Origin: Schmidtea nova
Taxonomy: Eukaryota
DNA: 64,000 bases
Direction: 5' to 3'
NCBI GenBank assembly: GCA_044892505.1
Contig: CM097883.1
Span: forward strand, 162,812,001-162,876,000
The stretch's first letter is position 1, and every line of letters starts with the position of its first letter. Below, one piece after another: positions 13,560 through 15,843 of the stretch. The notes below the pieces were generated by a model. That model worked only from the letters and a program-made list of their open reading frames with translations, did no database searches and was not told the DNA's origin. A program made the position numbers and the translations under genes.

Positions 13560-15414
13560 ATTTTTCTAATTTTTTTATGATGATGTCTGAATAATGCGAA
13601 CTCTGCGCACATAGGGCACATCCCTAGAAGCAATTTCCAAGACTATCCCCCGATCTTGAATATGCTGTATGTGGATATGAGTTGTGAAATTATGATTTTT
13701 ACAATTATTATTATGGCATAGATGCCTGAACAACCTGCTACGAATATGCCGAAACTTGTAAATCTTCCACAGATTTTCTTTATTACATTTTTCGCTGCTA
13801 CTTTATAGTGCTCTGGCCCGAATAAGAGGTTGTAATTTGGTTTTCTATCAACTTCTCGATATATTCGTTCTCTTTTAATTATGCTACTCCCCTGTCTCTT
13901 ACTTGGGGAAATATGATTGCTCTCCTTGCTTCCTCTATATCTTCTGTAGTGTAGAATCCTCCTTTTGCAATATCGTTAAACGCTCTAAATTCCACTTTAC
14001 TGTCTAGCTTTGCTGCTTGTAGAATTTCAAGTGGTCTGGCCACCAAGTTTCTGGCAGGTAAAGATATCAAATGATTACCTATCTTGTATAATGGTGATAT
14101 AGCCGGATTACATACTGCTGATCTTGGTGCCGTTCCTTTATTGAATAATTGGTGCGTAACAGGTAACATAAACCTTATTTATCCTCTGAGCATCACTGGG
14201 AATTCAAGTGTGCAACTATTATATTTAGCCACTTCAACTTCTTCTGCTACACATTGGTAACTATAGATTGCTTCTCCCATGATCCTGCCAAAAGTACCCT
14301 GCTCGGTTAACATAGGCATAACTAGATCTGGGTTCACTATAGAAATTGCTAATCAATTTCTAATTATTTCACGATTTTATCTGCAGTCATTCAGGATAAC
14401 CTCCTGATACATGTCTTGCATATTTTTCTGTAGATTGTGATACAGAAAATTGACTTTATTATTAATGTAATTTGTTATTTTGATATCTGTTTTGCACAGT
14501 TTTTCCGCTGCTGGGATATATTTATCTGATATAAATATTCTTTGATAATTTTTTTCGTGTACCGTCACACCATATTTGATTTTCTGGCCTTTCCTTACCA
14601 GTCTAATTGCATCTGTTGCCTCCTTGGATACTAATACTAATGGAGTACATTTTTCATGAATTTCCTCCCTTACTAATTTTTTGATTTTTCGTCCTCCCCA
14701 TACTTCTCCTTTTTTTATTACTTGAGAACCTCGTTCCGTTTAATTTTTGGAATGCCATCCTAATTCACACTAACCTTTCATTGTCTGATATATTAAGGTA
14801 TCGGAAGATGTTCGACAAAATACCCGCTTAATATTGCATTCCGGATGGGTCATCATCTTTCCGGATACTACGTCAAACATCCCTTCTACTACATAATCTT
14901 CCAATTCTACTACATGCTTTATCGCGTTTTCCCCTCTCAACTTGGTGCGTTCATAGCATGAACCATCATCATCGATTGATCCTCCTCTGGTAATAGTTAT
15001 TGCTAGTGCCTTTCCTACTTCTGCCGTAATAGTTATTTCGTCATCTATTTTAAGTGTTCCCGTTCGAAAGACATTTTCATAATCGTCTGGTAGTATTACC
15101 ATAAATCTTGGTATTGATTTCGCTCCTAAAAATGCCGAATAACTGTGTGTCCAACACCAATATTCAAACGTTGCCTTTTGCAACCTACAATCTCTGATCG
15201 TAGTTCTATAAAAATCAGTTTGCTGATATACGTGATACGAGACTTCTTCTAATATCACTTTATCGGGATAAGCTTTCTTGCATTCCACTTTATCAACCAG
15301 TGAGTATATCCTACTCCAACTTGGATTGCTGCAATTATATGCTATTATTGAATTAGTTGGCTTTAACATCCACATAGCTACTAAAAACATAACCAATAGG
15401 TTTAGGAAGCTGCT
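13560..15414 (-). pseudogene. Env-like class III fusion glycoprotein (chuvirus/Jingchuvirales G-like), disrupted, located between gag and pol
   Basis: Signal peptide FLNLLVMFLVAMWML; IIAYNC..YSLVDKVEC; DCRLQ..YWCWTHSYS; NYINNKVNFLYHNLQKNMQDMYQEVILNDC; NPDLV..GRIMGEAIYSYQC..EV..CTLEFPV; IAKGGFYTTEDIEEARRAIIFP; TM FGIFVAGCSGIYAIIIIVKII. Confidence 0.85.
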
Positions 15415-15495
15415 TCCTCCTACTCTATCATTTGGTACCAATGGATTAGTTGGCAAATCCTCGGCTATCTCATATCGAATGGGCTTTTCCATTTT

Positions 15496-15843
15496 TGGGT
15501 CCCAAAATCTACTAACTTCTAACCATTGTTCGAAATTTGCTTCGATGATTTCTCCCATTTGTTCTATTTCTAATTCAATTGACGTTTGATTTTTGCTCAC
15601 TGATCTCACAACATTCTGTATCATTATTGCCAATACGGTTATCACCTTTCCTCTTGTGAGTCCATTTAATAGAAACTCGCTAATTATATTGTAAATCTCT
15701 GGTTTCTCCATAGTAGTAGGGATTTTTCCCATTGCTACCCTTATTTCTTGTGCTAATGCATCTACTTTAATAGTGTCGTCTTTCGCGATTTGCCATTCCG
15801 GCTTTATTATTCTCAATATTTGTCTCAGATACTTTTTCATTTT
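15496..15843 (-). CDS. Bcl-2-like domain in the same open frame as the env signal peptide (ORF 14770-15954)
   Basis: BH1-like EFLLNGLTRGKVITVL (cf. ELFxDGxNWGRIVAL); BH2-like WLEVSRFWD (cf. WIxxxGGWD); helical spacing compatible; followed by a hydrophobic segment. Confidence 0.65.

Follow-up and report, generated by a model that had tools for sequence, protein, structure and literature searches.

The window, a stretch of 64,000 nucleotides of Schmidtea nova DNA, harbours the remains of a Burro-type Gypsy element whose polyprotein, as judged from sequence profiles and a predicted model, includes a strongly diverged Bcl-2 fold in front of an envelope glycoprotein (Env). The explanation we prefer is tentative, and we hold it to be slightly less than an even chance: the signal helix of Env likely leaves the Bcl-2 fold in a piece anchored to the ER, and this piece would probably dampen cell death. 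The anti-death role of the anchored domain, which would have to be exerted through a remodelled groove, is the least certain part of this explanation.

The element in the window and its relatives

The LTR element lies on the minus strand and spans positions 680 to at least 23092 (Table 1). In comparison to its relatives, 22 stops and 13 frame changes were counted over 3,112 aligned amino acids (about 35 breaks), and a stop at 14770-14772 truncates Env. This copy is dead and cannot make the polyprotein. Over about 900 aligned bases the 5' and 3' LTRs differ at 10, and the near identity of LTRs in a copy with so many coding breaks could be explained by the copying of a broken template or by LTR homogenisation. 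The element contains two nested hAT transposons; the 5' LTR harbours one of them (19250-22760, with an 8-bp target duplication around it) and RT the other (7851-10316, minus strand). The 5' LTR adjoins a host exon on the plus strand, encoding a part of a 2-oxoacid dehydrogenase acyltransferase (23513-23908, E 1e-20), and a second host exon on this strand encodes an ABC transporter membrane domain (50971-51534, E 4.5e-31). Two more decayed Gypsy-type elements are located on the minus strand at 30255-33984 and 46349-50343, and no Env-like match was seen to either of them.

Relatives were found via PF00452 and homologue searches of the genome and were treated as 11 lineages, designated families A to K. 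The search of the genome with the domain gave 151 matches, of which 150 were listed, and for about 55 of these 150 (counted by eye) the surrounding open frame measures at least 3,400 aa. Relatives in this genome keep the polyprotein as one frame of 3,000-3,550 aa with the order Gag-Ubl-Bcl2-helix-Env-TM-PR-RT-RH-IN; the window is collinear with it but broken. In two relatives, each read in separate halves, Gag, Env, PR, RT, RH and IN were found to share one frame. The Bcl-2 domain was seen in each of the 11 families of this genome that were examined, and five metagenome proteins contain it too. For the region preceding it, ubiquitin is the best match, although a weak one (E 0.1; for two homologues, E 0.0046 and E 0.031). 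Two ubiquitin-like segments, each with a helical block before it, seem to be located between Gag and Bcl-2 (L031:7350-7900, plus strand, and L034), the E-value of 0.1 belonging to the first of them. The word RGRP is common to families A to D and to the metagenome homologues P0004 and P0009. For a dUTPase-like domain between PR and RT, neither a sequence match in PDB nor a match in Pfam was obtained; published calls of this domain used profile methods.

The assignment to the Burro type is based on domain content and order as described in print. The giant planarian Gypsy-like elements (Burro1-4/GYPSM1) are described in the accessible part of PMC6431247 with Gag, CCHC, an in-frame mononegavirus-type Env and PR-RT-RH-IN, the Ubi/SUMO-like, BCL2-like and mononegavirus-like Env domains being located between gag and pol of a single ORF; the BCL2-like motif is credited there to Grohme 2018. 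According to the same text the Burro ORF comprises 4,873-5,140 aa and the element more than 30 kb, whereas the frames of the window's relatives are shorter and the window element measures about 15 kb without its inserts. Pfam matches to the BIR, ankyrin and MATH domains reported for Burro1 were absent from six frame pieces of two relatives. By the matches of its parts, we class the element as a decayed, smaller Burro-type Gypsy with a Gag-Ubl-Bcl2-Env-Pol polyprotein.

All motifs listed in the earlier note are present in frame 14770-16020, which lies on the minus strand (no strand had been named). The ATG of this frame is 15954, and amino acids are counted from there. What had been described as an uninterrupted ORF (14770-15954) is an open stretch indeed, but no gene of its own. 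Given the density of breaks, an open stretch of at least 416 aa is expected by chance with P 0.23, and for this reason we regard it as a surviving piece of the broken polyprotein. Among the matches listed, 12 of the 13 with at least 54% identity have stops inside the domain, the window's being the sole exception, and none of the 13 has a longer frame than the window's. Domestication of the window copy was ruled out on account of these stops and of the length of the open stretch, which chance can explain. Family D has no Met at the position of 15954, and an internal start conserved at this place was therefore ruled out as well.

Table 1. Parts of the element, in window coordinates.
Feature	Position	Strand	Remarks
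3' LTR	680..1892	-	inner end at TG after purine tract, placed by eye
Accessory ORF2 remnant	2051..4036	-	no Pfam family
Remnant of second small ectodomain and C-terminal membrane helix	4186..5030	-	
Second predicted internal signal peptide	5031..5081	-	directly after integrase
Pol remnant (PR, RT, RH, IN)	4947..13251	-	interrupted by insert ~7658-12086 with hAT transposase
Env remnant, Monjiviricetes-type fusion glycoprotein, stop-broken	13550..15348	-	PF24664 in three frame pieces; tblastn to unbroken relatives
Env membrane helix	~13691-13747	-	
Polar c-region	15349..15363	-	signal peptidase predicted to cut between 15349 and 15348
Hydrophobic h-region; predicted to be an internal signal peptide of Env, likely anchor of the piece upstream	15364..15408	-	aa 183-197
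Variable spacer, 30 aa	15409..15498	-	pLDDT <50 in first model
Bcl-2-fold domain	15484..15846	-	aa 37-157; predicted model, profile match
BH2-like segment WLEVSRFWD, two conserved Trp	15499..15525	-	aa 144-152
BH1-like segment, TRGK at NWGR position	15631..15678	-	aa 93-108; aligned to Bcl-xL and Bok BH1
AT-hook-like word RGRP, shortly before Bcl-2 domain	15967..15978	-	Pfam AT_hook E 0.47, below cut-off
Ubiquitin-like region remnant between Gag and Bcl-2	16086..17484	-	collinear with relative; weak ubiquitin matches in relatives
Gag remnant with zinc knuckles	17440..18556	-	Retrotrans_gag E 0.0015, zf-CCHC_5 E 0.011
PBS-like site	18651-18666		
5' LTR	18670-19249 + 22761-23092	-	runs into N stretch; split by hAT element 19250-22760

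Identity and origin of the Bcl-2-like domain

The domain of the window alone reaches 18.8 bits (E 0.0025) with Pfam PF00452, which is below the cut-off of 31.4; this cut-off is passed by a family D relative with 34.1 bits, and among 42 element members, 34 hit this family with an E-value of at most 0.1. The search of the window domain against PDB by phmmer found no Bcl-2 protein and nothing else, and a word-indexed protein search delivered 0 matches with the single sequence and 2 with an alignment. With a profile of three element sequences, CNP058 of canarypox, Bok and Bcl-xL rank first (best E 0.0064). Profiles built from element sequences only find Bcl-xL at E 1e-8 (20 rows) and E 2e-9 (42 rows), and at the profile level the homology covers alpha4 to alpha8 (hhalign 95%, 71 columns). 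Using a 7-row profile against 1.84 billion representatives, 26 matches were obtained, seven of which were read as element-derived and 19 as cellular Bcl-2. The claim of a Bcl-2-like domain is borne out by the best of the element-only profiles together with the recovered fold of aa 37-157, and we conclude from these comparisons that the domain is homologous to Bcl-2, though strongly diverged. The positions of the proposed motifs are also conserved among the relatives: BH1 and BH2 are spaced by 41-44 residues in 18 of 18 element rows, compared to 43-44 in 24 of 26 cellular rows, and both Trp of BH2 are kept in at least 90% of 42 rows.

The result of structure prediction depended on the input. 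A first AlphaFold run with 20 rows, which included spacer and helix, was poor (pLDDT 51); a second run on the domain only, with 42 element-only rows, gave a pLDDT of 81 and a pTM of 0.75, with a pLDDT of 80-94 over the domain. VIA-align comparison of this model with 48,161 chains ranked Hydra Bcl-2-4 first (Z 12.6, rmsd 2.6 A, 121 aa), the first 32 rows all being Bcl-2-fold and the first unrelated row following at Z 5.8, although helical bundles may reach such Z-scores through their arrangement alone. Foldseek placed Mcl-1 and Bcl-xL on top for the second model (best E 0.046, TM about 0.5), and its matches to both models stayed short of E 0.001. The Bcl-2 bundle asked for in the earlier note is predicted, with this family on top in both comparisons. 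Despite the caveat on helical bundles, sequence and modelled structure agree on the Bcl-2 family. In Bcl-2, four helices precede alpha5. The model shows three confident helices there and a shortened alpha2-alpha3 region, and from the missing fourth helix we infer that the groove was probably rebuilt.

In a tree of 44 rows (18 element, 26 cellular), the element rows form one group with a support of 98/93. A tree of 34 rows of the conserved half, from which 10 of the 44 rows were left out as long or gappy, retains this group with 90/88. Such a grouping is consistent with one old capture of Bcl-2 by the elements, with the usual caveat on long branches. An origin from Bok, hinted at by TRGK versus TWGK, was dropped, as the elements form one group nearest to a divergent host paralogue; in AU tests a Bok-like sister was neither shown nor rejected (p 0.36 and p 0.215). 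A divergent group of host-type Bcl-2 sequences (L044, L046, L050, L058 and P0012), with a tail of its own and no Gly-Arg in BH1, is nearest to the element clade in both trees with weak support, and it is a possible relative of the donor gene.

The helix between the Bcl-2-like domain and Env

The glycoprotein behind the hydrophobic run matches PF24664 with E 3.8e-12. In the window and in seven relatives this match begins at profile positions 4-8, on the helix, and the helix therefore probably came with Env. The earlier note had regarded this segment as the C-terminal helix of Bcl-2 that doubles as the Env signal peptide. The anatomy of a signal peptide, with a predicted cut at the boundary given there (15349), agrees with the second half of this statement, whereas descent from a Bcl-2 tail finds no support in the alignment to the Env profile. 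The h-region has a mean Kyte-Doolittle value of 2.75 over 12 aa and of 1.79 over 19 aa, and the hydrophobic core of 12-15 residues ends about five residues before the predicted cut. The best 19-aa hydropathy ranges from 1.32 to 2.37 in 11 element junctions and from 1.59 to 2.72 in 10 cellular Bcl-2 tails.

The position of the cut was chosen by eye and lies two residues ahead of the conserved A-Y-x-C. At this position the (-3,-1) rule holds in 16 of 16 lineages, which are related and do not represent independent draws; 11 of 11 were counted first and five were found after the site had been chosen. At 13 other offsets tested, it holds in at most 4 of 16 lineages, with a background of 6-8%. The distance from BH2 to the cut varies between 42 and 76 aa across the 16 lineages. 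By these characteristics the junction helix is predicted to be a cleaved internal signal peptide of Env. The N-terminal side of an internal signal is cytosolic, which is the same orientation as that of a tail anchor. Accordingly, the upstream piece would be held in the membrane by default after the cut. Subject to caveats, anchoring of the Bcl-2 piece is likely as a default topology, and so is the dual use of the helix as anchor and signal.

The length of the anchored piece can be estimated from a word resembling a protease site. It occurs after the zinc knuckles and at RH/IN in families B and C, and before PR in family B only; eight matches compare to 0.04 expected, for a pattern defined after inspecting the sequences. 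No such word was found in families B and C around the Bcl-2 domain or between this domain and the helix, and for this reason the anchored piece probably comprises 670-810 aa. If the signal peptidase leaves a membrane-anchored vBcl-2, as proposed earlier, this may well not be a compact product, since over 500 upstream residues are linked to it with no protease-like word between.

A hydrophobic run following a Y/H-x-[LI]-R word is also found after integrase in 10 of 10 lineages examined, which suggests that internal signals belong to the general design of the polyprotein. The same observation argues against a tail-anchor reading, as integrase is no tail-anchored protein. In the post-integrase region (window 4186-5081, minus strand; L032, L035, L126-L132) an ectodomain of 150-400 aa with no Pfam family was observed, which ends in a C-terminal membrane helix in most families.

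In the mechanism we prefer, the helix would thread Env into the lumen while the upstream part stays in the cytosol, and signal peptidase would cut after the c-region at the predicted site. The membrane helix of Env would bring Pol back to the cytosol, and the second signal after integrase would export the small second ectodomain. Trimming of Gag by the protease of the element would then leave a piece of about 670-810 aa, consisting of Ubl region, AT-hook-like word, Bcl-2 and helix, and this ER-anchored piece would probably dampen host cell death. We also consider a flavivirus-style polyprotein with four passes and two internal signals, in which the anchored Bcl-2 with its rebuilt groove would be host-modulating or matrix-like and a second envelope protein would be exported; this is plausible in outline, but on balance doubtful.

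Possible functions and relation to known systems

The copies used for pN/pS were those returned by the searches and picked by score, which favours unbroken ones; for these copies, pN/pS of shared variants in the domain is 0.08 in family B (21 copies), 0.10 in family C (14) and 0.32 in family E (13), and family D (6 copies) contains one synonymous and two nonsynonymous shared variants, which are too few. Between families, dN/dS of the domain is 0.26-0.41 in five of six pairs, one pair being saturated. The comparison across copies suggested with the first reading of the sequence thus points to purifying selection, and by these counts the domain is under such selection in the relatives.

The canonical BH1 motif is remodelled. 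The replacement of NWGR by TRGK, on account of which the earlier note had called the function uncertain, was confirmed, and it is part of a general pattern: none of the 18 element lineages has the Trp of BH1, which 25 of 26 cellular rows contain, and Gly is kept in three of 18 element lineages (the window's clade) versus 15 of 26 cellular rows. An acidic or amide residue occupies the Gly position in 13 of 18 element lineages. The following position is basic in 13 of 18, and the window's clade has Gly-Lys, as does Bok. A near-canonical NWDR in L049 was discarded as a single-copy variant, the rest of its family having Arg there. As far as described in the available text of PMC9027176, Gly and Arg of NWGR mediate the binding of BH3 and partners; according to that of PMC11209288, deerpox DPV022, a Bcl-2 protein of a poxvirus, is anti-apoptotic although no BH motifs can be recognised in it. 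Complex prediction for the domain with a host BH3-like helix gave a score of 0.02, which speaks neither for nor against binding. From the modelled domain, it is uncertain whether it works as a canonical pro-survival Bcl-2.

With the same topology the domain may have another job, as a fold without BH3 binding that is a scaffold, keeping the Gag precursor at the ER membrane beside Env while particles assemble, or that blocks another host pathway, as is the case for some poxvirus proteins of this fold. We consider this unlikely, though not by far. Persistent purifying selection on a domain whose BH1 is remodelled in all element lineages, with Gly replaced by an acidic or amide residue in 13 of 18, would fit such a role, as would the shortened alpha2-alpha3 region of the model. 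A52, B14 and A46, which share the Bcl-2 fold in the VIA-align rows, are poxvirus proteins with non-apoptotic roles. However, they reach Z 5-7 and are outranked by cellular pro-survival proteins with Z 10-12.6; Gly-Lys is kept in the window's clade, as in Bok, and the partner of a scaffold is so far only putative. A precedent for the arrangement itself is the flavivirus anchor C, which doubles as the prM signal in the account given by the accessible part of PMC7601889.

It is improbable, in our view, that the helix serves as Env signal only, with a second cut, by signal peptide peptidase or by the protease of the element, releasing the Bcl-2 piece to the cytosol or nucleus. Signal function alone would explain the helix, because its core is short and it is aligned to the start of the Env profile, and the AT-hook-like word upstream is a further point for this reading. 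In 9 of 16 lineages a Gly, Pro, Asn or Ser residue is part of the h-region, which is free of them in the other seven, with the window among them. Against a release also stand the spacers of families B and C, where a protease-like word is absent, and a basic residue just after the helix in 10 of 16 lineages, which is the pattern of many tail anchors. Precedents for such processing are HCV core (PMC7601889) as well as the foamy virus leader and the MMTV signal peptide (PMC3705266); in the available parts of these sources, HCV core and foamy virus leader peptides are described to be recut in the membrane by signal peptide peptidases.

It is very improbable that the domain is a vestigial passenger whose retention reflects nothing but the need for an open frame. 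It evolves faster than the more constrained Env (35-45% versus 58-84% identity between families) and has lost the canonical motif, but this reading is largely refuted by the selection counts (pN/pS 0.08-0.32, dN/dS 0.26-0.41 where estimable), and the domain occurs in all families examined and the five metagenome proteins with its predicted fold intact.

The layout with BCL2 and Env in one ORF is already known from Burro, and close precedents for a dual-use helix are found in viral polyproteins. At the flavivirus capsid anchor/prM and HCV core/E1 junctions, as presented in the accessible text of PMC7601889, one internal helix is the C-terminal anchor of the upstream cytosolic protein and the signal of the glycoprotein. 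Unlike there, the helix follows a captured Bcl-2 fold that belongs to the Gag extension of a retroelement, and after it comes a polar c-region in agreement with the (-3,-1) rule. The viral Bcl-2 proteins CNP058, KsBcl-2, BHRF1 and M11L resemble the domain by a diverged fold, a C-terminal hydrophobic helix and an altered BH1 (available parts of PMC11209288 and PMC9027176); they are stand-alone genes with shown BH3 binding, whereas the domain here is part of a polyprotein. In the foamy virus Env leader and the MMTV signal peptide, an Env signal with a long functional cytosolic N-terminal part is found (PMC3705266), and Anakin elements of the Pao type are LTR elements with a captured mononegavirus-like (chuvirus) glycoprotein (PMC7642597). 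As far as these partial texts go, none of the three has a Bcl-2 domain, and Anakin belongs to Bel/Pao, not to Gypsy.

The Burro description in the accessible part of PMC6431247 mentions neither the junction helix and its cleavage nor a second signal or ectodomain after integrase, and the junction is absent from what the available parts of PMC8532177, PMC10175614 and PMC7642597 say. A helix as combined anchor and signal in these elements, or a post-integrase membrane protein, was not found in literature searches; they may be treated in Lee 2026 or in Grohme 2018 and its supplement.

With our analyses, the BCL2 label of Burro, so far at the level of a motif, gains support from predicted structure, phylogeny and selection, and we can offer a specific model of processing, in which a single cut site is predicted. 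The IAP cargo of Burro1 is described in the available part of PMC13465017 as demonstrated to be anti-apoptotic and to protect stem cells. If the anchored domain blocks cell death, it would be a second anti-apoptotic device beside the Burro1 IAP, in families which apparently have no IAP. If true, this would bear on the persistence of selfish elements in animals that are rich in stem cells.
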